Assembly (NCBI GenBank): GCA_963555755.3
Contig: OY820905.2
Span: 3,360,001-3,424,000, forward strand
Source: Nitrospirales bacterium
GTDB lineage: Bacteria > Nitrospirota > Nitrospiria > Nitrospirales > UBA8639
Direction: 5' to 3'
Length of the DNA: 64,000 nt
The translations under genes were made by a program, and so were the position numbers. Under the pieces are notes generated by a model. The model worked only from the letters and a program-made list of their open reading frames with translations. It did not search any database and was not told the DNA's origin. Shown here piece after piece: positions 778 through 45,551 of the stretch (position 1 is its first letter; every line of letters begins with the position of its first letter).

Positions 778-966
778 AGGGGCTGTTCAAAAAGGCCCAT
801 TGTCTGACCCGCCCAACCCAGGCGCGCCAAGACGCGCCCTTCCACAGGCAAGGCCGCAGGGGATTTGGCGCGCGGAGCGTACAGCAGTACGTGAGCACGA
901 CAAAGGCCCGAGAACGCCGCTGGGACCCTTCGGAAAGACTCAGGGCATGCTTTTTCAACAGCCCCT
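778..966 (+). repeat. Family-A palindromic repeat, copy 1
   Basis: Ends AGGGGCTGTTCAAAAA...TTTTTCAACAGCCCCT; core GCAAGGCCGCAG...GCGCGGAGCGTAC..GTACGTGAGCAC...GAGAACGCCGCTGG. Confidence 0.9.
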
Positions 967-971
967 TTAAA

Positions 972-1724
972 TTATTCCGATGCGGCGACCTTTTCCATCA
1001 CCTCATCCGAGATATCAAAATTGGCATGAACTTTTTGAACATCTTCCTGATCATCAAGGATTTCCATCAATTTCAACATCTGCACGGCTGGCCTTTCCTC
1101 GAGTTTCACGAGGTTCTGTGGGAGGAAGGTCACTTCGGCCAAGGACGTTTCAATGTGTGCGGTTTGAAGGGCTTCTTTCACCGCTTCGAAATCGGCAAGA
1201 TCCGTCGTGACTTCAAATCCGGTAGGGGTCTGTTGGACATCTTCGGCCCCGGCTTCCAACGCCAACGTCATGAGTCGATCTTCGTCAGTTTGACTTCCTT
1301 CCACAATTAACAGGCCTTTTTTATGGAATTGCCAGGCTACGGCACCCGCTTCCGCCATGTTACCATGGTTTTTCCCGAATATATTTCGAATTTCCGCTAC
1401 GGTCCGATTCCGATTGTCTGTCGTAATTTCCAGGAGCACCCCGGTCCCGCTGGGGCCATAGCCCTCAAGCGTAAATTCTTCATAGTTTACCCCGGGAAGT
1501 TCTCCGGTGCCTCGCTGAATCGCGCGCTTGATGGTATCGGCGGGCATATTGACTTCTTTGGCCTTGGCAATAAAGGTTCGAAGCGTGGGGTTGGCATCCG
1601 GGTCGCCACCGGCTCTCGACGAAATGGTGATTTCGCGGATGATTTTGGTAAAGATTTTACCTCGCTTGGCATCGATGGCACCTTTATGCCGCTTGATTGT
1701 TGACCAATGACTATGTCCACCCAT
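972..1724 (-). CDS. yebC: YebC/PmpR family protein
   Basis: MGGHSHWSTIKRHKG...EGYGPSG...TDNRNRT...DVQKVHAN. Confidence 0.97.
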   Translation of the reverse strand: MGGHSHWSTIKRHKGAIDAKRGKIFTKIIREITISSRAGGDPDANPTLRTFIAKAKEVNMPADTIKRAIQRGTGELPGVNYEEFTLEGYGPSGTGVLLEITTDNRNRTVAEIRNIFGKNHGNMAEAGAVAWQFHKKGLLIVEGSQTDEDRLMTLALEAGAEDVQQTPTGFEVTTDLADFEAVKEALQTAHIETSLAEVTFLPQNLVKLEERPAVQMLKLMEILDDQEDVQKVHANFDISDEVMEKVAASE

Positions 1725-1965
1725 TGAATAATCCTTTGATTAGGCCTTCGGTTTGGCTGCCAGTTACCATGACGATTTCGCCCGCATCCTAGGCGTGGGC
1801 TTGTATCACAGAGTCAAAACAGGTGTCAATGATAAGTACGTATTTTTAATTAGGTTTTTATTCTATTTTCGCAATTGCGGATACGCAGTTTTTCCGGAAA
1901 CCTTTCCGGACAATCCGTTGCTTGAGGCAGTTGCTTCAGGTCGAGAAGGATGGTATGGAAATCCC

Positions 1966-2940
1966 ATGCGCATTATATTTATGGGTACGCCAGAGTTTGC
2001 AGTTCCCTCTTTAGAATCATTGCTCAACCATGGGTTCCAGGTGGTAGGCGTCGTGACCCAACCCGATCGCCCGAAAGGTCGAGGGCAGACGGTTGGGGTC
2101 TCTCCAATCAAGCAACTCGCACAAGCTCAGGGTTTGCCCGTTCTCCAACCCGAAAAAATGAAAAGCCCCGAACTGCTTCAGGCTCTTGCTGCCTGGCGTT
2201 CTGATGTGATAACGGTCACAGCCTTCGGGCGGATTCTTCCAAAAAGTATATTGGACCTGCCCCCGGGAGGATGTATCAACGTGCATGGGTCGTTGTTGCC
2301 TCGATATCGGGGGGCGGCTCCGATCCAATGGTCCTTAATCAATGGGGATCTGGAAACTGGCATTACAACTATGCTCATGGACGAAGGTATGGATACGGGG
2401 GCCATGCTGCTCCAACGGGCTATTTCGATTGAACCGGATGATACGGCGGCGGAATTAGGCAATCGGCTCGCCAGGGTCGGGGGCGATCTATTGGTCGAAA
2501 CGCTCAAGGGTTTGGCCAACAAGACCGTCGCCCCCCAAGAGCAGGATCACGACAAGGTCACGTACGCACCCCTGTTAACCAAAGATGCGGGAATGATAGA
2601 CTGGACTCAATCGGCAAACGGTCTCGCCAACCGGATTCGAGGGTTATCCCCCTGGCCCGGGTGTTTTACCTTTCTTAGAGATCAACGGTTGGTTATTTGG
2701 AAGGCCAAGGCAGAGACAAAAAAATTCGATGAGGCAAAATCAGAACACAGGCCCGGTACGATTGTGGATGAAAACAAAAAAGAGTTTTGGGTCCTGACCG
2801 GCGAAGGGACATTAGGAGTTACAGAGGTTCAACCGGCCAACAAAAAGCGAATGACCGTGGCGCAATTTCTTCAAGGGCGATCGGTATCAATTGGCGAAGT
2901 GTTTACCTCTGGACCAGCATCGGCTTCTTCGCCTTCGTAA
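1966..2940 (+). CDS. fmt: Methionyl-tRNA formyltransferase
   Basis: MRIIFMGTPEFAVPSL, VVTQPDRPKGRG, NVHGSLLPRYRGAAPIQW; start moved to ATG 1966. Confidence 0.97.
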   Translation: MRIIFMGTPEFAVPSLESLLNHGFQVVGVVTQPDRPKGRGQTVGVSPIKQLAQAQGLPVLQPEKMKSPELLQALAAWRSDVITVTAFGRILPKSILDLPPGGCINVHGSLLPRYRGAAPIQWSLINGDLETGITTMLMDEGMDTGAMLLQRAISIEPDDTAAELGNRLARVGGDLLVETLKGLANKTVAPQEQDHDKVTYAPLLTKDAGMIDWTQSANGLANRIRGLSPWPGCFTFLRDQRLVIWKAKAETKKFDEAKSEHRPGTIVDENKKEFWVLTGEGTLGVTEVQPANKKRMTVAQFLQGRSVSIGEVFTSGPASASSPS

Positions 2941-3061
2941 AAATGGAACCGTGACATCGAAAGATATTTCGCAACTGGCTCCACATGTTGAAAGAGACTG
3001 TTGAATATTTCACTCCAATGGCCAATACATGCTCAGGAGGAGCCGGACAGCATCAGCTGGG

Positions 3062-3207
3062 GGGAATGTTCAAAAAAGCATGCCCTGAGTCTTTCCGAAG
3101 GGTCCGTCCAGCAAGGCCGCAGCCATTTTGACGCGCGGAGCGTACTCTCAGTACGTGAGCACGGCAAAATGGCGAGAACGCCGCTGGCGACTTTTTTCAA
3201 CATTCCC
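3062..3207 (+). repeat. Family-A palindromic repeat, copy 2
   Basis: GGGAATGTTCAAAAAA...TTTTTTCAACATTCCC with conserved core and CCCTGAGTCTTTCCGAAGGG insert. Confidence 0.9.
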
Positions 3208-3237
3208 TGAATTGAAATCAAGAATAGAGAGACAACC

Positions 3238-3585
3238 ATGACCGATCGCGAACAAGCCGCTGTAGAATTTCTCAAGAAACAATTGCAGGATTTAGAAATT
3301 ATACAACCGCATGCCCTCAAAACCACCAATGCCATCCGTGCGAAGGAGCAATTCCATAAATGGAAACTATATGTGATTGGGGCGGTGGCGGAAAGACTGG
3401 GTCCCACCTATGGCGAACGCCTACAAATAGAATGGATCGACACCGCATATGCTGGGGGAGACATGTATGATGAAATCGCCGATGACATCGAGATGTGCCT
3501 TCGCCAACTTAAACATCTTATCAGGGAAGTGGGCACGAAAGGGCTTGAGCCGCAAGATACCAATGACGCACCCGCATCGCAATAA
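3238..3585 (+). CDS. Hypothetical protein
   Basis: 115-aa ORF with plausible RBS, co-oriented just upstream of rsmA. Confidence 0.75.
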   Translation: MTDREQAAVEFLKKQLQDLEIIQPHALKTTNAIRAKEQFHKWKLYVIGAVAERLGPTYGERLQIEWIDTAYAGGDMYDEIADDIEMCLRQLKHLIREVGTKGLEPQDTNDAPASQ

Positions 3586-3600
3586 ACCCTGGCTGGGAAG

Positions 3601-4461
3601 ATGCTAAGGTCTTCTCCCCCTCCTCCACTCAAACGACTCGGTCAGCATTTCCTCATTGATCCCAATATCGTGAGAAAAATCCTTGGTGAAGCCGCGATTC
3701 GTCCAGAGGAAACGGTGTTTGAAATTGGGCCGGGACGTGGGGTGCTCACAGAGCCGTTGTGTGGCGTGGCGTCCCGGGTCATTGCGGTCGAAATCGACAA
3801 GAAGTTGGCGGCCTACTTATCTAGCGTCTGCCATCAATCCAATTTGGACCTTCGCACTGGCGATGCGCTGGAGTTCAACTACGACACCTTGCCACAAGGA
3901 ACGGTGGTGGTGGCGAATTTACCGTATTATGTCTCGACCCCCTTGTTGTTTCAGTTGCTGGAACACCGATCCCGGATCAGCCGGATGGTCCTAATGTTAC
4001 AGCTCGAGGTGGCCAAACGATTAGCGGCGAAGCCTGGGAGTTGCGACTACGGATCCCTATCGGTGTTGAGCCAATACTGTGCCGACTCGCGATTGGCCTT
4101 CAAAATCCCCGCCACCTGTTTTCGCCCACGGCCTGATGTTGATTCGGCGGTCGTGACTCTTTCCCTGCATCCTGGCAAAACGGACGATGATGCATTTGAT
4201 CGAGATTTCATGCGGACCGTTCGCGCGGCTTTTGCCCATCGAAGAAAAACGTTGGTGAATTCGTTTCGCGATTCGGGTTGGCCCCTATCCCCAATTCGGG
4301 ACGCGTTAGGCTCAGTGAACATTGATCCCACACGTCGTGCCGAAACGATGGCCCTCCAAGAATTCATCGACCTGACCCACGCCCTTCGCCATCACGCCCC
4401 TGACGAAAACACCCCTCCCGGCAAGGTCAACATCAGCGTTGCTCCAGATAGTACCTCTTAA
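3601..4461 (+). CDS. rsmA: 16S rRNA m6,2A dimethyltransferase KsgA/RsmA
   Basis: KRLGQHFLID, EIGPGRG, VANLPYY, FRPRPDVDS, FAHRRKTL. Confidence 0.97.
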   Translation: MLRSSPPPPLKRLGQHFLIDPNIVRKILGEAAIRPEETVFEIGPGRGVLTEPLCGVASRVIAVEIDKKLAAYLSSVCHQSNLDLRTGDALEFNYDTLPQGTVVVANLPYYVSTPLLFQLLEHRSRISRMVLMLQLEVAKRLAAKPGSCDYGSLSVLSQYCADSRLAFKIPATCFRPRPDVDSAVVTLSLHPGKTDDDAFDRDFMRTVRAAFAHRRKTLVNSFRDSGWPLSPIRDALGSVNIDPTRRAETMALQEFIDLTHALRHHAPDENTPPGKVNISVAPDSTS

Positions 4462-4712
4462 TTCGTCACGAAATATCCGTGGCCAATTCGAGGGTATGGT
4501 TGTCGCCTTTATCCGATAAAGGGTAGCGTCTCTTTTTTTTGGATCCAGGTTTTCTATGGTTTGGGATCGTCTTGGTAAGTTTGGGGTTTTGTGGTTTGTC
4601 TTTTGGTTTAGGAATTATATTGCGGGGTGTCGCCCCTGCATATAGGGTCTGTTGAATATCTCCTTCCCATAGCCAATAAAAGCTCCGGAGGAGCCAAGCG
4701 TCGTCAATTGGA

Positions 4713-4872
4713 GGGAAGGTTCAAAAAAGCATGCCCTGAGTCTTTCCGAAGGGTCTCTCCAGCCCTGTCCTGAGCGAAAGGCCGCAGCCCTTTTGACGCG
4801 CGGAGCGTACTCTCAGTACGTGAGCACGGCAAAAGGGCGAGAACGCCGCTGGCGGCTTTTTTCAACATTCCC
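4713..4872 (+). repeat. Family-A palindromic repeat, copy 3
   Basis: GGGAAGGTTCAAAAAA...TTTTTTCAACATTCCC with conserved core. Confidence 0.9.
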
Positions 4873-4944
4873 ATATAATAAAACCTTCCAGAGCGAGATC
4901 AACAGAAGGCTGAAACGGGACATGAGAAAAGAGTGGGAGAACCT

Positions 4945-4976
4945 GGATTCCCGATTAAGGATGTCGGGAATGACGG
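4945..4976. repeat. REP-like palindrome (ATTCCCGA...TCGGGAAT type)
   Basis: TGGATTCCCGATTAAGGATGTCGGGAATGACG hairpin. Confidence 0.55.
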
Positions 4977-5508
4977 CTTTCGATTGGGGAGGCAATGGGT
5001 CAACCTGTGCCTAAGGCGTGGCTTCGAATCCATTTGTTGCTTTCTCTGTTCAGACGCTACTACCATATAGTATGAGCACCCTTCCTCCAAAATCCAAACT
5101 GGAAAAGCCCTCTGACGGAGACCCGCCCCGCCGCATTCAAACACAGATCCATCGGCGGAATAAGGCGAAGGCGGTGTATCCTATGACCGATGAATGGGAA
5201 AATTCTCAAGATTCTCCTCCAAAGGGCTTAAAGCGGCCTCCCGAGGATATGCCCAAAAAAAAGTAGACTATCTCGTGCCTGTCTTTCTCTTCATTTTTTT
5301 TACGGCTTCCCGCAAGCATTTCCTTTTGGTGTAGAGTTCCCGATCTGAAAGGTAACGCGTCCATTCTTCCCTAAGTGTACTATGAAGTTGGGGCTTTTGA
5401 TGGCATTTTGGTAGGTCTTTTGTTCTCTTGATTCGTTAAAAAACGCGGTGTTACGATGGTAAATTCTGCAGAAAACTTGATGTTTTTTGCTTTTTGGGGG
5501 AGGTCAGT

Positions 5509-5892
5509 ATGAGTGGTTATGATATTCTACTTGCCTATTTGGATAATTATTCTCCCATCCTGATTTTTATCATCCTTGCCTTGGGCTTTGGGCTGGTGAC
5601 CTTGGGTCTCAGTTACTTAGTCCAACCGAAATATCCAGAAGATGAAAAATTGAGTGTATATGAATGTGGAAGCGAGCCGTTCTCGGACTCTCGTATACCC
5701 TTTCCCGTTCGCTATTACGTGATTGCCATGCTGTTTGTGATTTTCGATATTGAAGTAATTTTTCTCTATCCCTGGGCTATTACCTTCCATGAGTTGGGGG
5801 TGATAGGCCTGATTGAAATGATGATTTTCATTGGATTGTTTGTTGTTGCGTATGTCTATGCGTGGCGCAAGGGCGCTCTTGAGTGGGATTAA
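5509..5892 (+). CDS. nuoA: NADH-quinone oxidoreductase subunit A
   Basis: YECGSEP, RYYVIAMLFVIFDIE, WRKGALEWD; GGAGG upstream of ATG 5509. Confidence 0.97.
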   Translation: MSGYDILLAYLDNYSPILIFIILALGFGLVTLGLSYLVQPKYPEDEKLSVYECGSEPFSDSRIPFPVRYYVIAMLFVIFDIEVIFLYPWAITFHELGVIGLIEMMIFIGLFVVAYVYAWRKGALEWD

Positions 5893-5896
5893 TGAA

Positions 5897-5986
5897 CGTG
5901 AAGCGTGATCCGTGAAGCGTAAGGCGTAAAGGAATGAAAGAAACGGCATTTTCCCACCCATCACGCATGACGCATCACGCATAACG
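5897..5986. repeat. Heptamer tandem-repeat hairpin (nuoA-nuoB)
   Basis: CGTGAAG CGTGATC CGTGAAG CGTAAGG CGTAAAG ... CATCACG CATGACG CATCACG CATAACG. Confidence 0.85.
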
Positions 5987-5995
5987 AGGAAAAGA

Positions 5996-7150: not shown

Positions 7151-8401
7151 ATGGCGCATTTAGAAGATCAACGCGAGACGATTTATAAAGTCGATCCGGA
7201 GCATCCGGCGACCAAGGATCTTCCGGTTCTGCGGAGTGAAGAGCTGTTGCTTAACATGGGGCCGCAGCATCCGGCGACACATGGTGTGCTCAAGGTCATT
7301 CTCGCTCTCGAAGGTGAGCGCATTACCAAGTCTACGGTGGTCATGGGCTTTTTGCATCGCGGAGTCGAGAAACTTGCGGAGTATGGCACCTACCATCAGT
7401 TTATTCCCCATACCGATCGTCTTGATTACGTCTGCGCGATGTACAACAACTTTGCGTACTGCCGTGCTGTTGAAAAATTGATGAACATCACCCTGCCCGA
7501 AAAGGCAGAATATTTACGCACCATTGTCGCAGAAGTGCAGCGGATTATCGGCCATTTGTTTTGGCTTGGCACGCAGGCGTTGGATATCGGCGCGATGACC
7601 GTCTTTTTTTATACGTTCCGTGATCGCGAGATTCTCCTGGATTGGTTTGATGAATTATGCGGTGCACGTCTGACTACAAGCTGGTATCGCATTGGTGGCG
7701 TCGAGCGGGATTTCACGGATTCGTTAGAAGATAAAGTTCGACGGTTCTTGGATTATTTCCCTCCGAAGATCGAAGAATATGTGGTGTTCTTGGAGAAGAA
7801 TCGAATTTGGCTAGCTCGCACCGTGGGGGTCGCGGTCATCACTGCCGAAGATGCCTTAAGTTTTGGATTGAGTGGACCTACGTTGCGCGGGTCAGGTGTG
7901 GATTACGATTTGCGCAAATACGAATCATATGGGGCCTATCCCAAATGTGAGTTTAGCGTGCCAGTGGGGAAAAATGGTGATACTTATGACCGGTATTGGA
8001 TTCGCATAGAAGAAATGCGGGAAAGCATCAAAATCGTTCGGCAATGTATGGAGCAGATGCCGAAGGAAGGGGCGATCATGGCGGATGTGCCGAGTGTCAC
8101 CTTACCGCCGAAAGATCGTGTGTTTACCAATCTCGAATCCATGATTCAGCAGTTCAGGCTTTTTTCTCAAGGGTTCGATGCTCCGGCTGGAGAAATTTAT
8201 TGCGGAACGGAAGCGCACAAAGGTGAACTCGGCTTTTATATTGTGAGTACCGGTGGAGGAAATCCCTATCGGTTAAAAATTCGATCGCCTTCCTTTATTC
8301 ATATGGGTGCCTTCGATCATATGGCCAGAGGCTATATGATTGCCGATGCCGTCACGATCTTCGGATCCTACGATATTGTAATGGGGGAGTGCGACAGATG
8401 A
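7151..8401 (+). CDS. nuoD: NADH-quinone oxidoreductase subunit D
   Basis: NMGPQHPATHGVL, GFLHRGVEKL, DRLDY, C-terminal GECDR. Confidence 0.97.
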   Translation: MAHLEDQRETIYKVDPEHPATKDLPVLRSEELLLNMGPQHPATHGVLKVILALEGERITKSTVVMGFLHRGVEKLAEYGTYHQFIPHTDRLDYVCAMYNNFAYCRAVEKLMNITLPEKAEYLRTIVAEVQRIIGHLFWLGTQALDIGAMTVFFYTFRDREILLDWFDELCGARLTTSWYRIGGVERDFTDSLEDKVRRFLDYFPPKIEEYVVFLEKNRIWLARTVGVAVITAEDALSFGLSGPTLRGSGVDYDLRKYESYGAYPKCEFSVPVGKNGDTYDRYWIRIEEMRESIKIVRQCMEQMPKEGAIMADVPSVTLPPKDRVFTNLESMIQQFRLFSQGFDAPAGEIYCGTEAHKGELGFYIVSTGGGNPYRLKIRSPSFIHMGAFDHMARGYMIADAVTIFGSYDIVMGECDR

Positions 8402-8406
8402 AAAGA

Positions 8407-8493
8407 CGTGAAGCGTAACGCGTGATCCGTAATGCGTAAGGAACACGGCCATTCTTTATTTTACGCATCACGCATCACGGGTTACGCATTTCG
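8407..8493. repeat. Heptamer tandem-repeat hairpin (nuoD-nuoG)
   Basis: CGTGAAG CGTAACG CGTGATC CGTAATG ... TTACG CATCACG CATCACG GGTTACG. Confidence 0.85.
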
Positions 8494-11805: not shown

Positions 11806-11814
11806 CACTTCACG

Positions 11815-12673: not shown

Positions 12674-14665
12674 GTGTCAGATCTTCTCGTAATTCTTATC
12701 CCAGTCTTTCCGCTCATTGCCGTCCTGGTGAATGGGCTCGTCGGTCATCGATATTCTCATGACCTAGCTGGCCGTATTGCCTTAGGATCTGTGGGTTTAT
12801 CCTTCCTCTGTTCACTCAATGTTCTCGTGGGTGTCATGTCCGATCCGACCCCTCGCGAAGTCATTGCCTACTCTTGGATCTTTGGGGGTGACCTCAACAT
12901 CAATCTCGGATTCCTGATCGATCCGTTAACCGCTATCATGTTGATGGTAGTGACAGGAGTTGGATTTCTGATTCATGTGTACTCGGTTGGGTATATGCAT
13001 GGCGAAGAAGGGTTTACCCGTTTCTTCGTGTATATGAATTTGTTCATGGTCTCGATGCTCCTGCTGGTGATGGGCAACAACTATTTGGTGCTCTTCATCG
13101 GGTGGGAGGGTGTCGGACTGTGCTCCTATCTGTTGATCGGGTACTACTTCACCAAAGTGTCGGCGTCGAAAGCGGCCACCAAGGCCTTTGTGGTCAATCG
13201 CATTGGTGATGCCGGGTTCCTTCTGGCTATCTTCTTAATCTTCGTGAATTTTAAGACATTGGATTACACCAAAGTATTTGCCAATGCGGACCAACTCTCT
13301 ACAGAAATGGCCACGGCGATCGCCCTGTGCTTGTTAGTCGGAGCCATAGGAAAGTCGGCGCAACTGCCTCTGTTCACGTGGTTGCCTGATGCCATGGAAG
13401 GTCCCACGCCGGTGAGTGCCCTGATTCATGCGGCCACTATGGTAACGGCTGGTGTCTACATGGTGGTTCGAAACCACGTGTTATTCGATATGGCGCCGGT
13501 GGCTATGGCCACGGTGGGCCTCGTTGGAGGCATCACCGCGTTATTTGCCGCCACGATTGGACTAGTTCAGAACGACATCAAGCGTGTGTTGGCCTACTCA
13601 ACCGTCAGTCAGTTGGGCTACATGTTTTTGGCCTGTGGGGTAGGTGCGTATACTGCCGCCATCTTTCATCTGGTCACCCATGCGTTTTTCAAGGCGCTCC
13701 TCTTCCTGACTGCCGGGGCGGTGATTCATTCGCTGAATGGCGAGCAAGACATTCGGAAGATGGGCGGGCTCTCTAAAAGGATTCCGATTACGCATACGGT
13801 GTTTCTCATCGGCACCCTGGCCATTGCGGGGATTCCGCCGTTGGCCGGATTCTGGAGTAAAGATGAGATCATGGCGCATGCGTTTCTTCAGGGAGATTTT
13901 TTGGGATACGTGTTGTACGCTTTTGCGGCCATTGGCGCATTTTTGACGTCTTTTTACATGTTCCGTCTCATGTATCTTACGTTTTACGGGCAGTCGCGAG
14001 TTGATCCTGAAGTCGATCATCATATCCATGAATCGCCGCCGGTGATGACGGTGCCGCTTATGGTGTTGGCTGGCCTCGCGATTGTTGGTGGTTTTTTAGG
14101 TGTTCCGCCCGAGCATGGATGGTTCCATGGATTTTTATCGACTGTGGCAACACCGCTTGGCGCAGTGCCTCATGAAGTGAGTACGGGGACGTTGATCGGT
14201 TTAATGGCTGTGGCCATTAGTATTGCGCTGGGTGGTTGGGGATTGGCGCACTATATGTATTCCGTGAACACGACGTTGGCAGAAGAGTGGTCGGAACGAT
14301 TCGCTGGGGCCTATCGCACCGTGTTGAATAAATACTATGTGGATGAAATTTACGATGCGATCATTGTTGAACCGTGTAAACGTCTTGGCCAAATATGGGA
14401 TTGGGTCGATCAGAATATTATCGATCGCTTCATTCGCGGGATAGGTCACGGAGCCGATGTCAGTGGGGCCGGGGTCACGTGGACGGAGAAACACGTGATT
14501 TATGCGGGTCTCAATGTGATTGGGTTCGCCAATCATTTTGCGGCCCGGTCGTGGCGGAAAATGCAAACGGGTCTGGTGAATCATTACGCTGCGGTGTTTG
14601 TGATTGGACTGTTTATTCTTGTGCATTTAATTATTGTGTGGCTGACCGGAACATCGTTCTTATAA
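12674..14665 (+). CDS. nuoL: NADH-quinone oxidoreductase subunit L (extended C-terminal helix)
   Basis: GWEGVGLCSYLLIG, KSAQLPL.TWLPDAMEGPTPVSALIHAATMV, THAFFKALLFL. Confidence 0.97.
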   Translation: MSDLLVILIPVFPLIAVLVNGLVGHRYSHDLAGRIALGSVGLSFLCSLNVLVGVMSDPTPREVIAYSWIFGGDLNINLGFLIDPLTAIMLMVVTGVGFLIHVYSVGYMHGEEGFTRFFVYMNLFMVSMLLLVMGNNYLVLFIGWEGVGLCSYLLIGYYFTKVSASKAATKAFVVNRIGDAGFLLAIFLIFVNFKTLDYTKVFANADQLSTEMATAIALCLLVGAIGKSAQLPLFTWLPDAMEGPTPVSALIHAATMVTAGVYMVVRNHVLFDMAPVAMATVGLVGGITALFAATIGLVQNDIKRVLAYSTVSQLGYMFLACGVGAYTAAIFHLVTHAFFKALLFLTAGAVIHSLNGEQDIRKMGGLSKRIPITHTVFLIGTLAIAGIPPLAGFWSKDEIMAHAFLQGDFLGYVLYAFAAIGAFLTSFYMFRLMYLTFYGQSRVDPEVDHHIHESPPVMTVPLMVLAGLAIVGGFLGVPPEHGWFHGFLSTVATPLGAVPHEVSTGTLIGLMAVAISIALGGWGLAHYMYSVNTTLAEEWSERFAGAYRTVLNKYYVDEIYDAIIVEPCKRLGQIWDWVDQNIIDRFIRGIGHGADVSGAGVTWTEKHVIYAGLNVIGFANHFAARSWRKMQTGLVNHYAAVFVIGLFILVHLIIVWLTGTSFL

Positions 14666-14670
14666 GGGGA

Positions 14671-14767
14671 AGTGAAGCGTGATCCGTAAAGCGTTATGCG
14701 GGAGTAAAGATTGCGGCGAATTTTAAACGTGACCCCATTCTTTTCATATCACGCATTACTCATTACG
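14671..14767. repeat. Heptamer tandem-repeat hairpin (nuoL-nuoM1)
   Basis: AGTGAAG CGTGATC CGTAAAG CGTTATG ... TATCACG CATTACT CATTACG. Confidence 0.75.
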
Positions 14768-18021: not shown

Positions 18022-18099
18022 ACCAAAAACGCAACGGGAGAAAAATGATAGACCTTTTAGCTTGTATTTCCTGCACCTTGCGACGTGGTGACCATTCAG

Positions 18100-18130
18100 T
18101 CCCCCCTTTGGAAAAGGGGGTTAGGGGGAT
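18100..18130. repeat. REP-like palindrome (CCCCCTTT..AAAGGGGG family); related copies at ~7077-7110 and ~51989-52019
   Basis: TCCCCCCTTTGGAAAAGGGGGTTAGGGGGAT. Confidence 0.65.
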
Positions 18131-18169
18131 TTATAGTTTTTTAACTTTCAACTAGTACATCCCAAACCT

Positions 18170-18205
18170 CCCTCGCCCCTGAGGGGAGAGGGTTGGGGTG
18201 AGGGG
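18170..18205. repeat. REP-like palindrome (CCCTCGCCCCT.AGGGGAGAGGG..GGGTGAGGGG family)
   Basis: Related copies at 20253-20287, 43689-43729, 55935-55969 and 57539-57573. Confidence 0.85.
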
Positions 18206-20216: not shown

Positions 20217-20307
20217 TTAATTAGCTCCAATTTAATCATGAAAAAAGATTAACCCCTCACCCTTCCCTCTCCCCTCAGTGGCGAGGGTAGTTCTCTATAC
20301 TTATTTC

Positions 20308-22159: not shown

Positions 22160-22552
22160 ATGAAAATTGAACGATTTGAAGATATTGAAGCATGGCAACT
22201 GGCGCGTGAGTTGACCCGAAAAGTGTATGGACTGGCGAAGAAGCCAGTATTTGCCAAAGATTATGGGTTAAAGAAACAGATACAAAATGCTGCTGGATCG
22301 TCGATGCATAATATCGCTGAAGGGTTCGATTCAGAGACGAATCCTGAATTTATCCGGTTCTTACGGTACGCCAAGCGGTCTTGCACGGAAGTTCAGAGTG
22401 AGTTGTATTTAGCTTTGGACGAAGAGTACATCTCGTCCGATGAATTCAAAGAAACCTTCGAGCTTGCTGGACGAACCCGTGCTGCTGTTAGGGGATTCAT
22501 TAACTATCTCAAGAAATTTGAGGAACACAACAAGGCGATCCATGAACGGTGA
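22160..22552 (+). CDS. Four-helix-bundle protein (23S rRNA-IVS protein family)
   Basis: FEDIEAWQ, DYGLKKQI..AAGS.MHNIAEGF, EFIRFL.YAKRSCTEVQSELY.ALDEEYI. Confidence 0.92.
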   Translation: MKIERFEDIEAWQLARELTRKVYGLAKKPVFAKDYGLKKQIQNAAGSSMHNIAEGFDSETNPEFIRFLRYAKRSCTEVQSELYLALDEEYISSDEFKETFELAGRTRAAVRGFINYLKKFEEHNKAIHER

Positions 22553-22830
22553 CCCCTGAACCATGAACGGTGACCCCTGAACCATGAACGGTGACCCCTG
22601 AACCATGAACGGTGAACCCTGAACCCTGAACCTTGAACCCTGAACCTTGAACCCTGAACCTTGAACGGTGACCCCTGAACCTTGAACGGTGACCCCTGAA
22701 CCTTGAACGGTGACCCCTGAACCTTGAACGGTGACCCCTGAACCTTGAACGGTGACCCCTGAACCATGAACGGTGACCCCTGAACCTTGAACGGTGAACC
22801 CTGAACCTTGAACGGTGAACCCTGAACCTG
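22540..22830 (+). repeat. Heptamer tandem array (~41 units; 21-bp higher-order repeat)
   Basis: TGAACGG-TGACCCC-TGAACC(A/T) repeated, interrupted by TGAACCC/TGAACCT; short reverse-complement array at 22118-22154. Confidence 0.95.
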
Positions 22831-22884
22831 ACAGCCTGAGTCGTTAACAATCATCCAACCCTTGTTTCCCTAAAGGAGAGTCGT

Positions 22885-23304
22885 ATGCCAGGAACGAATA
22901 TTCGAGAGACTAAGTTTGGACAAATGACAGTCGGGCAATTGATGGAAAAATGCGTGCAGTCTGCCAACAGGGACTCGAAGGCGGAATTGCTCGCTTCGTA
23001 TATGATGGAGGGGTTTGGCTCGGTGCCGATCATTGACAATTCGGAAAATTTAGTTGGCATTGTGTCAGAGTTTGACTTATTGAAAGCCCTGAGAAAAGGC
23101 AACAAACTAGGCGAGGTCTTGGCTGGTGATATCATGACTCCGAATCCTATTTCAGCCTTTCAGGGTATGGATGTGCCAGCGCTCATTGATATTTTGCAAA
23201 ACAATCATCTCATTCGGGTGCCGGTGATCGATGGTAATGGAAAATTGATCGGGATTGTCGCTCGACGGGATATCCTCCGCGGTTACCTCCAATCTGGCAG
23301 CTAA
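22885..23304 (+). CDS. CBS domain-containing protein
   Basis: VPIID..LVGIVSEFDLL and RVPVID..KLIGIVARRDIL. Confidence 0.92.
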   Translation: MPGTNIRETKFGQMTVGQLMEKCVQSANRDSKAELLASYMMEGFGSVPIIDNSENLVGIVSEFDLLKALRKGNKLGEVLAGDIMTPNPISAFQGMDVPALIDILQNNHLIRVPVIDGNGKLIGIVARRDILRGYLQSGS

Positions 23305-23317: not shown

Positions 23318-23438
23318 GGGCCTGCTGCAAAAGCCCGCCAGCGGCGTTCTCAGGCCTTTGTCGTGCTCACGTACTTCATGTACGCTCCGCGCGCCAAAGT
23401 CCCTGCGGCCTTGCTGGACGAACTTTTTCAACAAGCCC
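23318..23438 (-). repeat. Family-A palindromic repeat, copy 4
   Basis: Reverse-complement core CCAGCGGCGTTCTC...GTGCTCACGTAC..GTACGCTCCGCGC...CTGCGGCCTTGCTGG. Confidence 0.9.
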
Positions 23439-25473: not shown

Positions 25474-25643
25474 AAGGGGCTGTTCAAAAAGGCCGTTGTC
25501 TGACCCGCCCAACCCAGGCGCGCCAAGACGCGCCCTTCCACAGGCAAGGCCGCAGGTACTTTGGCGCGCGGAGCGTACTCACAGTACGTGAGCACGACAA
25601 AGGGCCGAGAACGCCGCTGGGCGGCCTTTTTGAACAGCCCCTT
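25474..25643 (+). repeat. Family-A palindromic repeat, copy 5
   Basis: AAGGGGCTGTTCAAAAAGGCCG...CGGCCTTTTTGAACAGCCCCTT; shares the TCTGACCCGCCCAACCCAGGCGCGCCAAGACGCGCCC insert with copy 1. Confidence 0.92.
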
Positions 25644-39200: not shown

Positions 39201-39382
39201 ACCCGGAATTCCGCCGTTGCGTGTGATCCACTGTGCGAGGAGCCGCCTGTCCCGAGCCTTGTCGAAGGACTCACACCGTGCTCGCCAGATGGAAGAATTC
39301 TGGGCTGCGGCTCCGCCGCGTCCAATGCGAGAACCCACGACCGAGACAGAGAATAAAAGCGCCACGCGACCTCACGACGGTA

Positions 39383-39508: not shown

Positions 39509-39601
39509 GAAAGAGTTGGGTCGAAATGACAAGGAAAGAAGGGGACACGATTTACCAAGCCGTCCCAAGAGTATTGAGCAGTGTTTGAAAAAACTCATTG
39601 A

Positions 39602-41542
39602 TTAGAGGTTTTCAATATGAACGGGTTCTTCTCCCTCCGCTGGTGTAAACCCAAACACTTTTGAATAGAAGTACAACTCGTTGTCCAGTACCCGTTTGAT
39701 GTTTTCTGGTCGGCGAAAACCATGCTGCTCCCCTTCAAATGCGACATACGCGACGGGCAAGCCTTTCGCTTTGACGGCGTCGAACATCTTTTCAGCTTGA
39801 TTTGGTGGAACGACTTTGTCCTCTAACCCTTGGAATAAAATTAACGGGCAAGAGAGACGGTCGGTGAAATAAATCGGCGAGCGTTGATCGTAGAGATCTT
39901 TTCGTTCCGGGTACGGACCGATCAGCCGGTCCAAATATCGCGACTCAAACTTATGGGTATCGCAAACCAAGGCTTCAAGATCGGACACGCCATAGTAACT
40001 CGATCCCGCGGTAAAACAATCCCGAAAGGTTAAGGCACAGAGGGTTGTATAGCCGCCCGCGCTGCCGCCCGTAATCGTCACCCGTGAAGCATCGGCCTTT
40101 CCCTGGTCAATCACGTATTGCACGGCACTGACACAATCATCCACATCGACAATGCCCCACTGGCTATTGAGCCGTTCTCGATAGGCTCGGCCATATCCTG
40201 TGCTGCCGCCATAGTTTACGTCGAGCACGGCAAAGCCTCGGCTCGTCCAATACTGAATCATCAAGTTAAATGTTGTCGATGCTGCGGCGGTTGGTCCGCC
40301 GTGGCTTTTGACCATAAGAGGGGGCTGTTCACCTTCCGGCGCTTGAAAGTCTGTGTTTTGAGGTGGGTAGTAAAACGCATGAGCAGTGTGGCCATCCTTA
40401 GCGGGATACTCAATGGCGGTCGGGGCTGATACGTATTTTCCCTCGATCGTGAAATCAATGGCTTGACGAAGAATGTTGACGTGATGAGTCGCAAGGTCCA
40501 ATTGAATAATCGAATGTGGGTGAGACGGGGAACTTGCTGTACACAATACGTTGCCCCCTCGAACGAGAACATTTCCAAAGTCCGTGTAAGGAAGATCGAA
40601 CGTGTCCAGGTGGCCGTTCGTCATGTTCAGTCTGGCTAAGTGCCATAGGCCCTTTCGGGTGTAGGCACAAATGAGGTTAGAGGAAGATTCAAAATCATAG
40701 AGCCTCTGTCCAAAGGCCCATTGGGGCAGGCCACATTCAGCATCCATAGAGCATAAGGGGTGAACCTGCCCTTCTTGCCATTGATAAAGGTTCCACCAAC
40801 CCGTCCGGTCCGAAACAAAATGCAAAATTCCTTCCGGAGACCATTCAGGCTGGAAGATAGATTCGTCTGGTCCTCCCGCAACACAGTGAGCATGGACAAG
40901 CGTACCGTCTTGTTGGATGTCAGCAATCCACAGTTCCGTGCCATCCCAAGGCATATTAGGGTGGTTCCAGGTAAGCCAGGCCAGTTGGTTCCCATTGGGG
41001 TTGAGGCGAGGCGAAGCGTAAAAATCGTTGCCCGAGACAAGGATTGATCCTGGATACGGTTCACCAGCAGGATCGAGTGGAATGCTGACAATCGTGTTGA
41101 TAGGTTCGTGATGAGCATCGGTTTGGTCTTCCCGAATATAAATTAGACGGTTGCGTGTATGGTCGTAAATTCCGTCAGCGTAGAACAGGGAAGCTTTGGG
41201 AGTACGAGGTTCGGGAACCTGCCCCGGAATTTGTCGGTAAAGCCGTTGGTCAGCGAAATTGGAGAAATAGAGAACGTCGTTGGCCACGAGGTAAGGCGCT
41301 CCCCCGTACTCATGGACTCGCGTCCGGGCATTAAACGGCTGAGGCGTGAGGATCTCTCGCGACCCATCATCATGAAGGCGAATAATCGCACTCCGTCCAC
41401 CTTCGGTTGGCCGACTCTCAATCCAGTAAACCTGATCACCGCAAAGAGAAATTTGTCCGAGCTTGATCGATTTTGAGACAATTCGGTCCGACGTGAGGGG
41501 GGATTTCCAAGAACCGTATGGGGCAACGGTCGGTTCAGTCAT
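39602..41542 (-). CDS. S9 family peptidase (acylaminoacyl/dipeptidyl aminopeptidase)
   Basis: APYGSWKSP, HGGPT, GGSAGGY, DKVVPP, EQHGFR. Confidence 0.95.
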   Translation of the reverse strand: MTEPTVAPYGSWKSPLTSDRIVSKSIKLGQISLCGDQVYWIESRPTEGGRSAIIRLHDDGSREILTPQPFNARTRVHEYGGAPYLVANDVLYFSNFADQRLYRQIPGQVPEPRTPKASLFYADGIYDHTRNRLIYIREDQTDAHHEPINTIVSIPLDPAGEPYPGSILVSGNDFYASPRLNPNGNQLAWLTWNHPNMPWDGTELWIADIQQDGTLVHAHCVAGGPDESIFQPEWSPEGILHFVSDRTGWWNLYQWQEGQVHPLCSMDAECGLPQWAFGQRLYDFESSSNLICAYTRKGLWHLARLNMTNGHLDTFDLPYTDFGNVLVRGGNVLCTASSPSHPHSIIQLDLATHHVNILRQAIDFTIEGKYVSAPTAIEYPAKDGHTAHAFYYPPQNTDFQAPEGEQPPLMVKSHGGPTAAASTTFNLMIQYWTSRGFAVLDVNYGGSTGYGRAYRERLNSQWGIVDVDDCVSAVQYVIDQGKADASRVTITGGSAGGYTTLCALTFRDCFTAGSSYYGVSDLEALVCDTHKFESRYLDRLIGPYPERKDLYDQRSPIYFTDRLSCPLILFQGLEDKVVPPNQAEKMFDAVKAKGLPVAYVAFEGEQHGFRRPENIKRVLDNELYFYSKVFGFTPAEGEEPVHIENL

Positions 41543-41641
41543 ACCAACGATGTACCTCGATCCAGAAAAGGGGTTATGCAGCCAAGGACTAAAAAGTGCA
41601 TCTTACTCCGAGGAAATTTTGGAAAGAAAATTTGGAAGGAA

Positions 41642-41848
41642 TTAGGCTTGCACCGAAGAGTGACACCGCACATATTCTTCGGAAGCAATGGTGACGAAGT
41701 CGACGAGGTTTTTGATGCATCGGCCACAGCAGTTATCTTTGTCATCAATTTCGAGGGTTGAGGCGAGCTCTTTGGGACAGGTCACTCCGGCTCGACCGAG
41801 TGCCCTGACATCCGCTTCCTTGATCCCTTTGCAAACACAAATGTACAT
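41642..41848 (-). CDS. bfd: Bfd-like (2Fe-2S)-binding protein
   Basis: MYICVCKGIKE...CCGRC; start moved to ATG 41848. Confidence 0.85.
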   Translation of the reverse strand: MYICVCKGIKEADVRALGRAGVTCPKELASTLEIDDKDNCCGRCIKNLVDFVTIASEEYVRCHSSVQA

Positions 41849-41869
41849 AATGTTTATCCGAATACGATT

Positions 41870-41886
41870 TTGATTACCGTTCTCAA
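41870..41886. promoter_or_regulatory. Possible Fur-type operator upstream of bfd
   Basis: Imperfect palindrome TTGATTACCGTTCTCAA about 20 bp upstream of the bfd start; bfd genes are commonly iron-regulated. Confidence 0.45.
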
Positions 41887-42004
41887 CTAAATAGATTCTA
41901 AGCCCCAATTGTTGTGGTTGTCAATACGAAATATGAGAAAATTTTTCATGGTAAAGGAACTGGATCCATGTTCCATGAAATCATTGTAACCTGTTGAAAT
42001 AACA

Positions 42005-42301
42005 ATGATTGAATCGACTTCAGATGGGGTCATCCTCACGGTGCACGTACAGCCCAAGGCTTCGAAAACAGAATTTGTCGGCATGCATGGTGATGCTTTA
42101 AAGTTTCGCGTGGCTGCCCCACCTGTTGAGGGAAAAGCCAATGCTGCGTTGTGTCGCCATGTGGCGAAATTGTTTTCTATCCCTCAACGTGGAGTGTCGG
42201 TTTCTTCGGGCCAGGCCAGTCGAAAGAAACGAATTGAGGTTATCGGTGTCACTGAGGACGAAGTCCGGAACATATTAGGTCTGTCGAAATTTTCATGCTA
42301 A
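42005..42301 (+). CDS. yggU: DUF167 (YggU) family protein
   Basis: VHVQPKAS, AAPPVEGKAN, SGQASRKK. Confidence 0.9.
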   Translation: MIESTSDGVILTVHVQPKASKTEFVGMHGDALKFRVAAPPVEGKANAALCRHVAKLFSIPQRGVSVSSGQASRKKRIEVIGVTEDEVRNILGLSKFSC

Positions 42302-42310
42302 AAACGTGCT

Positions 42311-45300
42311 ATGGATAATTCATCCCTTAAAAAAGAACTTCTTGCCGTTTTTGGAAATCGGTTGAGCCAGGAAGCTGCCGGTGAAGTTACTCCGCTTTTG
42401 GAGGAGGCTGGTGTTTCTGCACAGGTATTGGAACTTCTTTCGGAATTACAGGATAGTTCAGCCAAACTTGCGGGGGAGGCGATCGAAGCCTTGCCGGAAG
42501 TCCTTCGCCGATGTGATCCGCACACGGTTGTCTGGTGGTTGGATTTGGCTATTGCGTTAGCGGCTTTGTCGGGCGCGGTCACGCTCAAGTATCTACGGGA
42601 AAGCCCACGGATTTTGGGAGTGCTGGACACTCCGGCTCTTCGCCAACACGTTCTCGTCGTTTCGCTGGAAGTGGCGGATCGCGATTCCGAGTATGCCGCG
42701 AATTGTGCGTTTGAGTTTTTCCGAAAGACCCCTGAATTACTGTTTGCCGATCCAGCAATCGATCTGGCCGGTTGGGCCGAAGTGGGACAAGAACTTACGG
42801 AGTGGAACCAAGTACTAGGGATTGAATTCTTTCGAGAATGTGCCAATGTGGCCGACGTGCTGCCTTTAGATGACGTTCGGCCCTGGGTCGCGTTCGGGAT
42901 GAAACTCATCACACAAAATAGCCTTGGGAAACTTGACTATATCGGGATTTTGGAATTCTTTAGAACGAGTCCTTCGCTCTTAAAAGAAATTGAAGCGATG
43001 GATGTGCGGCCACGGGTTGTTGCACTTGGATCGACCCTTGCCGATCGTTCCCCTGAAACCGCTCTGACGTTTCTGGGTGAAATTCCCCTATTGACAAAAG
43101 CTCTTCCAACCAAAGAATGGCAGACTACGGTGTTGCAATATGGAGGGCTTCTGGCGGAACGTGATGCTGAAGTCACGCTGGCCTATTTGCGACGATGTCC
43201 GGAGGTGGTGAGTGTGACGGTCGGATCAGATGATACCCACGATGCCTTTGAGACATGGTTCCGTGGTGGCATGGATGTGCTGGACTATAGCATCGATGGG
43301 GCTCGCGCTTATTTTGCGCTTGAAACGTCCAAGGCGTTGAGTTCGATTGAACAGGCCATGAATGGGGTGCCGCTTCGACAAGTGGCACGTTCGTTAAAAC
43401 TGTTTGCTCAGATGATTTGCGGAGAATCCATTTCTATAGAATCGTTGTCCGAAAATAGTGGTCTTGCTCGAACCGAGAAGACCCCTGAAGGTATGCGAAT
43501 CCGGTTGCCCATGGTGATGAATCAATACCCCACGCGTGAGGTGAATCTTCGATGTTATACCGTGATGGTCGCGCACGAAGTAGGGCACTTGGAGTTTGGA
43601 ACGTATCGGATTGATCTAGAGGCTGTTCGGGCTTTGGCGCAAGAGGTGGTGTCTCGATATCGACGCGGTGATGGGGATGCGGGGACAACCCCCTCACCCT
43701 CCCCTCTCCCCCTTCCAGGGGGCGAGGGTTTAAGAAATCAAACCCCCACGATTGCGCCGGAAATTAAGTGTTTGGGGGATCTCTTTTCTCTCTACCCTCA
43801 AAAGGGTGTGATTCAAGATCTGTGGACGATCCTCGAAGATGCGCGGGTCGAGTTTCTTCTGCAACAAGAATATCCAGGGCTTTGTCATGATCTCGCGGCA
43901 TTAGCCAAAGCGTCAGTGAGTATGCGTTCGTTATTACATGGGATGACGGCACGCGAAATGGTGTTGGATGCGTTGCTTCTGCATTTCACTCAAGGGGCTG
44001 ATGCCGTTCATTTCCAGGATGATCTCATGCCAGTGATTGAGCGTGGTTGGGCATTGGCACAATCTATTTTACAACCCTCAGCCTCGGCTCATGATGTGAT
44101 AGAGACGGCGGATCAAATTTATCAGGCCATGGAAGACATGATTGGGACATATGAGGTGTCCACGACTGAGCTAACTCAGGAATCTCAGGACGAAGACTCC
44201 GATATCGGTGCTGGCCCGCGAGCGGCGGAAGAAACTGCCGGGGCCTATCGGTCTATCACGAACTTTGCATACAGAGGCGAAATGAGTCCGGAACTCGTCC
44301 AAGGCGAAACGGATTCAGAAGAAGGCGTCGCACCATCTGGTGGTAAGAGCCCGGACATGCAGGAGTTTGGCGGAGCGGGTGAGTCGTCATCTCGAAGATC
44401 CGAGGAATCGGGCAAGAAAGAGTTAATTGAAGATCAGCCGCATGATCGGGGTGATTCGCAACCTGGTGAAGATCGCATCTTGGAGAAACATTGGGAGGTC
44501 AAAGGGTCAGGGCAAGGCGAGTTACAGGTTCAAAAGGGTGAAGATCGAACCTATCTCTATCCTGAATGGGATGGAATGATACAAGACTATCGACTCAAAT
44601 GGTGTCGAGTCATTGAACGGCCAGGTCCGGAAGGGAGCCCGGACTTTGCCCAGGCGACTCTCGAAAAACATGCTTCCTCGATCCGGTTATTGAGACGGTA
44701 CTTTGAAACCATTCGCCCAACGGCCTTACGTCGGGTGCGTGGATATGAACATGGCGAGGAACTCGATCTCGATGCCGTCATTAGTCGAGCCGTGGATCGG
44801 CGCGCGGGAGCCGAGCCGTCCGACCGGATCTATTCACGCAGAGACAAACGGGAACGGCAGGTGGCCGTAGCGTTTTTAGTGGACATGAGTGGATCGACCG
44901 GTCGGCAGATTGAAACCGGAGCGCGTCGTGTGATTGATATTGAAAAAGAAGGGTTGGTGTTGTTGATTGAGGCATTAGAGGCCATAGGCGATCAATACGC
45001 TTTGTACGCTTTTTCCGGACAAGGGCGGGATCATGTGGATTTTCTCGTGCTCAAAGATTTCGAAGACACTCTACGCTATCAAGTGGCGCAGCGCATTGAA
45101 GCCATGACTCCGTTGCAACAAAATCGCGATGGAGCCGCCATTCGTCACGCCGCTCAGAAGTTGCTTCAATGCCCTGCCCGGCATCGTTTGTTGATCTTGT
45201 TGAGTGACGGAAAGCCGCTGGATGGCGGGTATGCAGAAGAATATGCTCTGGAGGATACCAAGATGGCCTTACGTGAAGCGCGTCAGCGCGGCATTAGTCC

Positions 45301-45439
45301 GTTTTGCCTGACGGTTGATCAAGAAGCCACCGGATACCTCAAACGAATGTATGGAGATGTTCAGTATCTGGTCCTTGATGATGTGGCGGACTTGCCTGAA
45401 CGGTTGCCACGGGTGTATCAACGACTAACCGGGCGTTGA
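42311..45439 (+). CDS. NorD/CbbO-like VWA-domain protein with long helical-repeat N-terminus
   Basis: AHEVGH, EDARVE, YPEWD, MIDAS DMSGS, NRDGAAIRHA, LSDGKP. Confidence 0.88.
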   Translation: MDNSSLKKELLAVFGNRLSQEAAGEVTPLLEEAGVSAQVLELLSELQDSSAKLAGEAIEALPEVLRRCDPHTVVWWLDLAIALAALSGAVTLKYLRESPRILGVLDTPALRQHVLVVSLEVADRDSEYAANCAFEFFRKTPELLFADPAIDLAGWAEVGQELTEWNQVLGIEFFRECANVADVLPLDDVRPWVAFGMKLITQNSLGKLDYIGILEFFRTSPSLLKEIEAMDVRPRVVALGSTLADRSPETALTFLGEIPLLTKALPTKEWQTTVLQYGGLLAERDAEVTLAYLRRCPEVVSVTVGSDDTHDAFETWFRGGMDVLDYSIDGARAYFALETSKALSSIEQAMNGVPLRQVARSLKLFAQMICGESISIESLSENSGLARTEKTPEGMRIRLPMVMNQYPTREVNLRCYTVMVAHEVGHLEFGTYRIDLEAVRALAQEVVSRYRRGDGDAGTTPSPSPLPLPGGEGLRNQTPTIAPEIKCLGDLFSLYPQKGVIQDLWTILEDARVEFLLQQEYPGLCHDLAALAKASVSMRSLLHGMTAREMVLDALLLHFTQGADAVHFQDDLMPVIERGWALAQSILQPSASAHDVIETADQIYQAMEDMIGTYEVSTTELTQESQDEDSDIGAGPRAAEETAGAYRSITNFAYRGEMSPELVQGETDSEEGVAPSGGKSPDMQEFGGAGESSSRRSEESGKKELIEDQPHDRGDSQPGEDRILEKHWEVKGSGQGELQVQKGEDRTYLYPEWDGMIQDYRLKWCRVIERPGPEGSPDFAQATLEKHASSIRLLRRYFETIRPTALRRVRGYEHGEELDLDAVISRAVDRRAGAEPSDRIYSRRDKRERQVAVAFLVDMSGSTGRQIETGARRVIDIEKEGLVLLIEALEAIGDQYALYAFSGQGRDHVDFLVLKDFEDTLRYQVAQRIEAMTPLQQNRDGAAIRHAAQKLLQCPARHRLLILLSDGKPLDGGYAEEYALEDTKMALREARQRGISPFCLTVDQEATGYLKRMYGDVQYLVLDDVADLPERLPRVYQRLTGR

Positions 45440-45551
45440 AAAAGGCCGCCAGCGGCGTTCTCGGCCCGTTGCCGTGCTCACGTACTATGAGTACGCTCCG
45501 CGCGCCCACGGTCCTGCGGCCTTGCTGGACGACCTTTTTGAACGCCCGGTT
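45428..45551 (-). repeat. Family-A palindromic repeat, copy 7 (supplies VWA gene stop codon)
   Basis: ACCGGGCGTTGAAAAAGG...CCTTTTTGAACGCCCGGT. Confidence 0.92.

Follow-up and report, generated by a model that had tools for sequence, protein, structure and literature searches.

I report here on a repeat that occurs seven times in a stretch of 64,000 nucleotides (hereafter, the window) of a Nitrospirales bacterium (assembly GCA_963555755.3, contig OY820905.2, positions 3,360,001 to 3,424,000). The repeats are copies of a MITE (miniature inverted-repeat transposable element), that is, of a non-autonomous DNA transposon, and reciprocal covariance-model matches indicate that their interior shares the conserved central inverted-repeat core of ERIC, the repetitive intergenic consensus of enterobacteria. 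The window repeat is not a member of ERIC, because it has neither TA ends nor a TA duplication. On balance, I favour the explanation that this MITE was likely moved by an IS5/IS1182-type transposase and that the host probably retains its interior hairpin, which carries the two loop motifs of ERIC, for the fold it forms in RNA at the ends of genes.

A mobile element with three layouts

An earlier note, made from the letters of the window, described seven copies with four core motifs in both orientations, and all of them were found at the positions given there. A covariance model of the repeat family has exactly seven matches in the window, and these are the same seven copies. In the whole genome (G000), the exact core occurs 189 times and a reversed-pattern control 0 times; a looser search gives 287 copies (about 290). 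The tip pattern is patchy in the phylum, being present in 20 of 251 genomes with one copy to over 100 each, and the genomes of a sister genus hold 0-3 exact tips each. Elements almost identical to the window repeat are present in records with the titles Nitrospira or Nitrospirales.

Clustering of the flanks sorts the genome copies into three layouts, named AC, B, and solo. The inner unit is about 120-125 bp in length with GGG..CCC ends. The AC type (n = 119) has an extra left arm of 70-85 bp, which ends in GGGnCTGTTGAATAWT. Its 5-bp target duplication is perfect in 65 of the 119 copies and has at most one mismatch in 81 (shuffled mean 1.1, maximum 6), and duplications of 4 bp (4 copies) and 6 bp (2 copies) are at chance level. 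The solo type (about 120 copies) is the hairpin unit alone, mostly without a readable duplication. In the B type (n = 45), the hairpin unit is enclosed by a shell with the same ends as a resident IS1182 (two copies, CTAG flanks). Shells of 162 bp without the core coexist with shells of 291 bp that have the core and a 4-6-bp duplication; therefore, the unit jumped once into an IS1182 MITE shell, after which the composite spread. The arms contain optional small modules, and all 11 IS110 copies (343-aa frame) are inserted at one position of module m1 (for example, at G000:C1 1171755 and 2155842).

For six of the seven window copies, the orthologous site is empty or the copy is absent in at least one congener; the site of copy 3 could not be aligned. 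The family thus has terminal inverted repeats, a fixed-length duplication, a short length, no transposase gene, many dispersed copies, and empty sites. It had been called MITE-like in the earlier note, and the target duplications and empty sites bear this out. Viewed purely as mobile DNA, it is an ordinary family.

An autonomous element with matching ends is present for the B shell (IS1182) and for a sister family D (IS5 of relatives). Family D has 117 copies of ~141 bp, none of them in the window, with a perfect 4-bp duplication in 94 (for example, G000:C1 2217104-2217244). It has the ends of IS5 (NF033581) elements found in relatives and the same architecture, and in its tip a C-G pair has become T-A by compensated change. 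A third tip variant, E (11 copies), was found within the same outer motifs. A resident IS5 (NF033578) with the ends GGGCTTGCTGAWAAAAG is close to the ends of the unit, but it makes a 6-bp duplication. In the stretches scanned, there was no autonomous element that bears both the AC ends (GGGnCTGTTGAATA) and a 5-bp duplication, so the class of the enzyme is taken from the end sequence; an IS5/IS1182-type transposase is the likely mover of the window copies. Paired-end scans of G000 gave only IS110, IS1595, and IS5 elements, inserted inside the MITE or unrelated to it, and the IS1595 at C1:3591602 was ruled out as the partner by its own ends and its own duplication. The duplications at 29 DUF772 loci of relatives are 4-bp or CTAG-type. 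When metagenomes were scanned for the left end, 21 tip-bearing copies came up, and none of the 102 stretches held a bounded transposase. In the interior of the repeat, no match to transposase DNA was found. The earlier note had set identity with the ends of a described insertion sequence against its view of the repeat, and this is half the case: the ends are IS5/IS1182-type and the interior matches ERIC. Therefore, the repeat is not an unrelated new motif.

The interior shares a core with ERIC

In copy 2, the ERIC-like core lies at positions 3109..3187 of the plus strand. Its internal-loop motif, CAGC-AAGGC-CGCA ... GAG-AACGC-CGCTG, encloses a variable 9-bp stem and the conserved tip (3133..3161, plus strand), in which GGAG and a 5-bp stem CGTAC/GTACG round a free loop are followed by TGAG. 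G.U and tandem G.A pairs are predicted in the tip. ERIC and the window repeat have the same order and spacing of AAGGC..GCA, GGAGC(G/T)TAC-loop-GTA(C/A)GTGA, and AACGC. Their tips differ by a compensated exchange of T-A and G-C, and one ERIC of Escherichia coli K-12 has the G-C form.

A degenerate pattern, designed with ERIC and the Nitrospirota families in view, matched at least 112 stretches of GTDB genomes. Among the matches listed with a title, 77 of 80 are from Enterobacterales or Nitrospirota/Nitrospinota, 1 is from Coriobacteriales, and 2 are unnamed. With the ERIC model R1, window copies 7 and 4 rank first (E 1e-7 and 8e-7), the five insert-bearing window copies give E 0.005-9.8, and unrelated hairpins used as controls reach E 2e-4. 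The pattern and R1 are partly circular, because the pattern was drawn from both families and R1 from its matches. The independent direction is model R2, which was built from 26 Nitrospirota copies only. In E. coli K-12, R2 has 11 matches at E <= 1, all with the tip, of which six are ERIC-like (best E 2e-5; one of them just 26 nt) and five belong to a second repeat (best E 8e-8). The six are a minority of the K-12 ERICs, of which the lists in PMC10969869 and PMC5172473 give 19-30. Apart from one mismatch, the ERIC2 primer is present in the enterobacterial consensus.

The second K-12 repeat (5 sites) has the same tip and flanks that resemble family D, and the outer AAGGC/AACGC motif is absent. 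I take its sites, from their coordinates, to include the rpsP-ffh and pyrH-frr spacers, and it may be RSA. A table in PMC5172473 gives RSA as 150/151 bp with 6 copies.

Related copies were also found further afield. Plasmid copies of Agrobacterium and Sphingobium have the same tip, and their ends adjoin the stop codon of an opposite-strand gene. A viral scan had one match, an ERIC-like copy. In a Coriobacteriales-titled bin (G176, loci L213 and L217), two tandem ERIC-like copies lie directly upstream of the 16S rRNA gene; these are intermediate between ERIC and the window form, with a contig end near the rRNA gene and uncertain binning. At positions 813-995 of locus L035, the Rfam family CssrA overlaps the right half of the ERIC in the rpsB-tsf spacer, and V_AS5 matches it weakly, so some Rfam small-RNA families may be derived from ERIC.

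Loops are kept in sequence and stems in pairing

Single window copies fold as one long hairpin (z of -4.2 to -6.7 as DNA, and of -5.2 to -6.3 as RNA of the drawn strand). The earlier statement that the paired segments change together was confirmed, since the covariation is far above shuffled controls. Over 85 distinct haplotypes of the 9-bp inner stem, Watson-Crick pairs fill 660 of the 765 cells, against 527 +/- 9 in arm-shuffled sets (maximum 559 in 2000 shuffles), and among 26 diverse copies there is a two-sided change in 20 of 35 pairs, against 8.6 +/- 1.6 (0 of 500 shuffles as high); the relatedness of the copies is uncontrolled in both sets of shuffles. As for the inner stems that were said to co-vary in the window, three of the seven copies have a perfect stem, and the other four have one or two mismatches. 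Genome-wide, 108 of 241 parsed copies have a perfect inner stem.

In 238 copies anchored on the outer motifs alone, the positions of GGAGCGTAC and GTACGTGAG are 89-100% conserved, while in the adjacent stem the figure for positions 2-5 is 54-68%. Thus, the loops and the tip are kept in sequence and the stems are kept in pairing.

Compensatory change among dispersed copies is, alone, no proof of selection on RNA, and this evidence is ambiguous, because transversion-type changes make up 11 of the 17 differences in pairs between perfect stems and because one of 297 copies has had its left arm replaced by the complement of its right arm. In one-mismatch haplotypes of the drawn strand, purine-purine mismatches outnumber pyrimidine-pyrimidine ones (28 vs 4, events that are not independent). 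The asymmetry between G.T (G.U) and A.C in these haplotypes is not significant (9 vs 3, p 0.15).

Copies at fixed sites and at stop codons

Is the fold also kept in copies that no longer move? In the sister genus mentioned above, the spacer between rplW and rplB contains the element in 15 of 30 genomes, immediately after the rplW stop codon (13 with the tip and 2 worn). Among the 12 species whose copies had kept the motifs, the p-distance is 0.008 for the loop motifs, 0.065 for the tip, 0.17-0.26 for the stems, and 0.30 for the four-fold sites of rplB. At a second fixed site, behind a sigma-factor-like gene, six of the 30 genomes have the element, and the tip distance, the sole value used there, is 0.064 against 0.30 (5 copies). 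In three genomes (G002, G049, and G080), the loops kept at the two fixed sites are not the same, a point against mutual conversion. Conservation even at one fixed site in related species suggests that the repeat likely does a job for the host. The earlier claim that the fold is maintained, and that the repeat is not neutral debris, is thereby backed. The strand preference in the fixed set is slight (-47.7 vs -44.0 kcal/mol). In the convergent spacer behind the sigma-factor-like gene (loci L408-L437), differing hairpin repeats fill the space in each species, as if any long hairpin served.

The polarity of the copies was assessed with one test based on open reading frames (ORFs), in which a stop codon at the drawn 3' end of a copy was counted against one at its 5' end. 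Solo copies show 67 vs 21 of 120. The AC copies with a perfect duplication show 24 vs 12 of 65 (p 0.065; 15 vs 4 with called genes), and the other AC copies 21 vs 12 of 54. There is no 3' excess in B copies (7 vs 7 of 40), empty shells (9 vs 9 of 38), or family D (16 vs 26 of 117). The bias recurs in relatives (15 vs 2 of 20) and in the Nitrospirota loci of GTDB (13 vs 1 of 38). It is strongest in copies without readable duplications, a pattern more in keeping with selective retention than with directed insertion. The solo copies lie on the lagging side more often than not (78 lagging vs 49), with AC at 61 vs 54 and B at 22 vs 23; this replichore bias of the solo type is probably a by-product of gene orientation.

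What the host may keep

I suggest the following course of events. Copies that land beside a stop codon would be co-transcribed with the abutting gene. There, the intact rod, which on either strand is preceded by an A-run and followed by a U-run, could act as a 3'-end barrier or as a processing site. The conserved loops might serve in its recognition; the analogy is with the ERICs of Yersinia, for which PMC2229807 describes an orientation-dependent, RNase E-linked effect on mRNA stability and decay. Stop-adjacent copies would then be retained whole or else deleted, and this would account for the conservation at fixed sites as well as for a polarity that grows with the age of the copies. A wider version of this explanation is offered tentatively, as quite possible. 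The ERIC interior may be an ancient, portable functional module that sits in unrelated MITE shells (IS1182, IS5, the 5-bp family, and the TA-ended ERIC) across phyla; its loop motifs would be recognised by a conserved host factor, its insertions at gene ends would be tolerable or useful, and purifying selection would act after movement stops.

Several observations weigh against the favoured explanation. A fixed copy is dispensable, because many genomes have none: 15 of the 30 lack the rplW-rplB copy (some with a scrap of its end, and 2 more worn), and 24 of the 30 lack the one at the second site. The 12 rplW-rplB copies compared are those that kept the motifs; L389 and L391 were left out for their indels, and L394 was not captured. 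One insert is common to both fixed copies of G022, which shows that a copy can be refreshed by conversion or re-insertion. Covariation within the fixed rplW-rplB set is weak (6 of 43 pairs). Sequence-only profiles of the core are weak too, with 7 of 34 and 7 of 26 cross-scores above all shuffled and pair-shuffled controls and no match for most of the others. Neither G000, nor the 29 DUF772 loci of relatives, nor the 102 metagenome stretches yielded an autonomous partner that combines the AC ends with a 5-bp duplication. The public RNA and DNA runs are in the form of contigs, in which repeats collapse and which hold no empty-site joints and no strand or end information. Finally, the mRNA of the abutting gene carries the other strand, not the one that folds better and tolerates purine-purine mismatches (28 vs 4 haplotypes).

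Because of this last point, a role at the level of DNA stays a serious rival, although I consider it rather unlikely. The same MITEs would then have a fold that is selected as single-stranded or cruciform DNA, with loops that bind a protein of the host or of the element and with transcripts that are incidental; the protein would aid the pairing of ends in transposition or have a chromosomal role (replication or repair). The transversion-type changes (11 of 17) agree with this, since the common intermediates are G.G and A.G and not G.U, and so does the good fold of the repeat as DNA. The same core in shells with different ends is likewise expected if the core helps any MITE to spread. However, help in transposition cannot conserve a stationary copy, and the coreless 162-bp shells are numerous too. 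Moreover, the polarity tracks gene ends and copy age, and the young families (B and AC) have no replichore bias. It is improbable that covariation arose without any selection, through bursts of a few master copies and template switching that carries changes from one arm to the other. The overwritten left arm in one of 297 copies is such an event, and the strong subfamily structure, the uncompensated stem changes in orthologues of window copies in congeners, and the decay or deletion of many copies all fit. Arm copying would nevertheless erase asymmetric loops, yet the loops are the most conserved positions; they are common to ERIC across phyla and barely change at the fixed site, so this neutral account is already weakened.

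The earlier note had also raised an unclassified non-coding RNA. A multicopy small-RNA gene or ribozyme family that has its own promoter and spread via an RNA intermediate would fit a strand-asymmetric fold with tandem G.A and G.U pairs and conserved loops. The terminal inverted repeats and fixed 5-bp duplications point instead to a DDE enzyme. Scanned for sigma-70 promoters, the extra arms that copies 2 and 3 carry gave no match, and Rfam 15 had no match at the gathering or E-value level, only chance matches. A stand-alone RNA is thus unlikely, since the repeat is mobile and has neither a promoter match nor an Rfam family, and I regard the RNA-intermediate version as very improbable. To return to the explanation favoured here, a MITE whose hairpin is likely kept as an RNA fold at gene ends, its setting in the window is as follows.

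The seven window copies and their neighbours

Copies 1, 2, 3, and 6 are 70-85 bp longer than the extents given in the earlier note, with an extra arm that terminates in the outer terminal repeat. Copy 1 (707..965, plus strand) is a full AC-type MITE with two optional inserts; its left outer terminal repeat begins at 707, its inner hairpin unit spans 779-965, and its flanks are TTTAT / TTTAA. It ends 6 nt from the stop codon of yebC (on the minus strand), and its site is clean-empty in G162. Copy 2 (2994..3207, plus strand), of the AC type with optional module m1, lies between fmt and a 115-aa ORF with flanks TGAAA / TGAAT; the site is empty in G160, and G055 has a separate insertion in the same spacer. 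Copy 3 (4645..4872, plus strand), also of the AC type, lies behind ksgA with a perfect 5-bp duplication, ATATA, and has modules m1 and m2. Copy 4 (23318..23438, minus strand) is an insert-free solo unit that lies 13 nt past the stop codon of the ORF 22885-23304; it is absent in G162 and ranks second in the search with the ERIC-only model.

Copy 5 (25476..25641, plus strand) is a unit with one insert, which abuts the stop codon of egtD (on the minus strand); G162 has this copy, and G055 and G158 do not. Copy 6 (37182..about 37400, minus strand) is of the AC type with a worn left arm. Its end supplies the TGA codon of an ECF ATPase gene and it separates this gene from ecfT; the same two genes are directly coupled in G162. 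At the corresponding site behind the ECF ATPase gene of G160 (L268), there are REP-like hairpins and a short ORF, which I take to resemble a GIY-YIG nuclease. Copy 7 (45428..45551, minus strand), another insert-free solo unit and the top match of the ERIC-only model, supplies the TGA codon of a 1042-aa ORF. Its site is empty in G055 and G158, which may reflect loss, because the more distant G118 keeps a worn copy.

The copies had been said to lie mostly right after stop codons; this is true for five of the seven (copies 1, 4, 5, 6, and 7) and not for copies 2 and 3. In all five, the gene reads into the drawn 3' end of the element, and its mRNA carries the opposite strand.

Other repeats and features were noticed in the window. 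Another hairpin MITE (497-677, ~180 bp), with many copies elsewhere, lies between copy 1 and a ruvA-like gene. Hairpins of 7-nt tandem units occur at 5887-5986, 8397-8493, 14661-14767, 45546-45627, 47024-47066, and 53471-53557. Several of these are between genes of complex I, whose operon in the window has two nuoM genes, a mark of Nitrospirota, and one adjoins copy 7; such a hairpin replaces the tip in two B shells. REP-like GC-rich palindromes are found at 18099-18204, 20250-20292, 43676-43711, 51987-52020, 55926-55972, and 57530-57587, and a 21-nt tandem array at 22481-22900. A c-di-GMP-I riboswitch (58927-59016) lies upstream of a 575-aa ORF (59246-60973), which has no NCBIfam match at 1e-10.

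Comparison with known systems

ERIC has been in use for typing for three decades. On how such elements move, a 2007 review states that there was no experimental support (PMC2229807). A homologous core in Nitrospirota MITEs with IS5/IS1182 ends separates the core from the ends. The genome studied here has natural controls in its shells with and without the core, its young and old copies, and its fixed orthologous copies. Its three shells, whose transposases are identifiable or near-identifiable, and its coreless controls would make the mobility and function of the ERIC-type core directly testable. Should the conservation at fixed sites hold up, the intergenic DNA of bacteria conceals a widespread RNA or DNA motif and, with it, a partner that binds the motif. 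The shells with and without the core within one genome, the age-graded polarity with its controls, and the rate comparison at fixed sites are new here. In the main texts and passages covered, supplements aside, no report was found of the ERIC core outside the Gammaproteobacteria, nor was one found of such a repeat in Nitrospirota, although it may be present, unnamed, in the catalogue of MITEs that supplements PMC11602168.

The repetitive extragenic palindromes (REPs) and REPINs are, like the window repeat, palindromic and intergenic, and IS110 elements target REPs as an IS110 does here. The window repeat is longer and is bounded by terminal repeats with fixed duplications. The earlier suggestion of a REPIN found no support, in that none of 17 Y1 transposase loci is flanked on both sides by copies; two of the 17 are flanked on one side, where 1.9 are expected, and there is no link to a REP-associated tyrosine transposase (RAYT). 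The Rickettsia palindromic elements (RPEs) are described in PMC2229807 as long hairpins with open frames. The RPE peptide models, by which the comparison was made, match 0 of 10 frames of the window copies; the Agrobacterium plasmid copy, which has the same 27-nt tip, is matched by the RPE5 peptide model at E 2e-4 and 21 bits, below the cut-off of 29.45. The MITEs of IS5 and IS1182 are alike in the class of their end sequences, the B shell having the ends of the resident IS1182 and family D those of IS5 (NF033581). They differ in that the AC ends with the 5-bp duplication are without a partner found.

The closest system is ERIC, also called the intergenic repeat unit (IRU) or RU-1, an element of 127 bp whose hosts are given in PMC10969869, a review of 2024, as two gammaproteobacterial families, Enterobacteriaceae and Vibrionaceae. 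It is a rod-shaped imperfect palindrome of similar length, and its stems co-vary as well (23 of 39 pairs). Open reading frames run across both elements, and both are fused to the 3' ends of genes (for ERIC, according to PMC2759123). The TA termini and TA duplication that table 1 of PMC2229807 gives for ERIC are absent from the window repeat, which has other outer arms, another inner stem, a 5-bp duplication, IS5/IS1182-like ends, and a Nitrospirota host. The stop-codon polarity is strong in the window family, whereas in a sample of ERICs it is not significant (23 vs 13 of 56, p 0.13). Thus, a MITE and an ERIC-type core are each of a known kind, and what is new is their combination with different ends.

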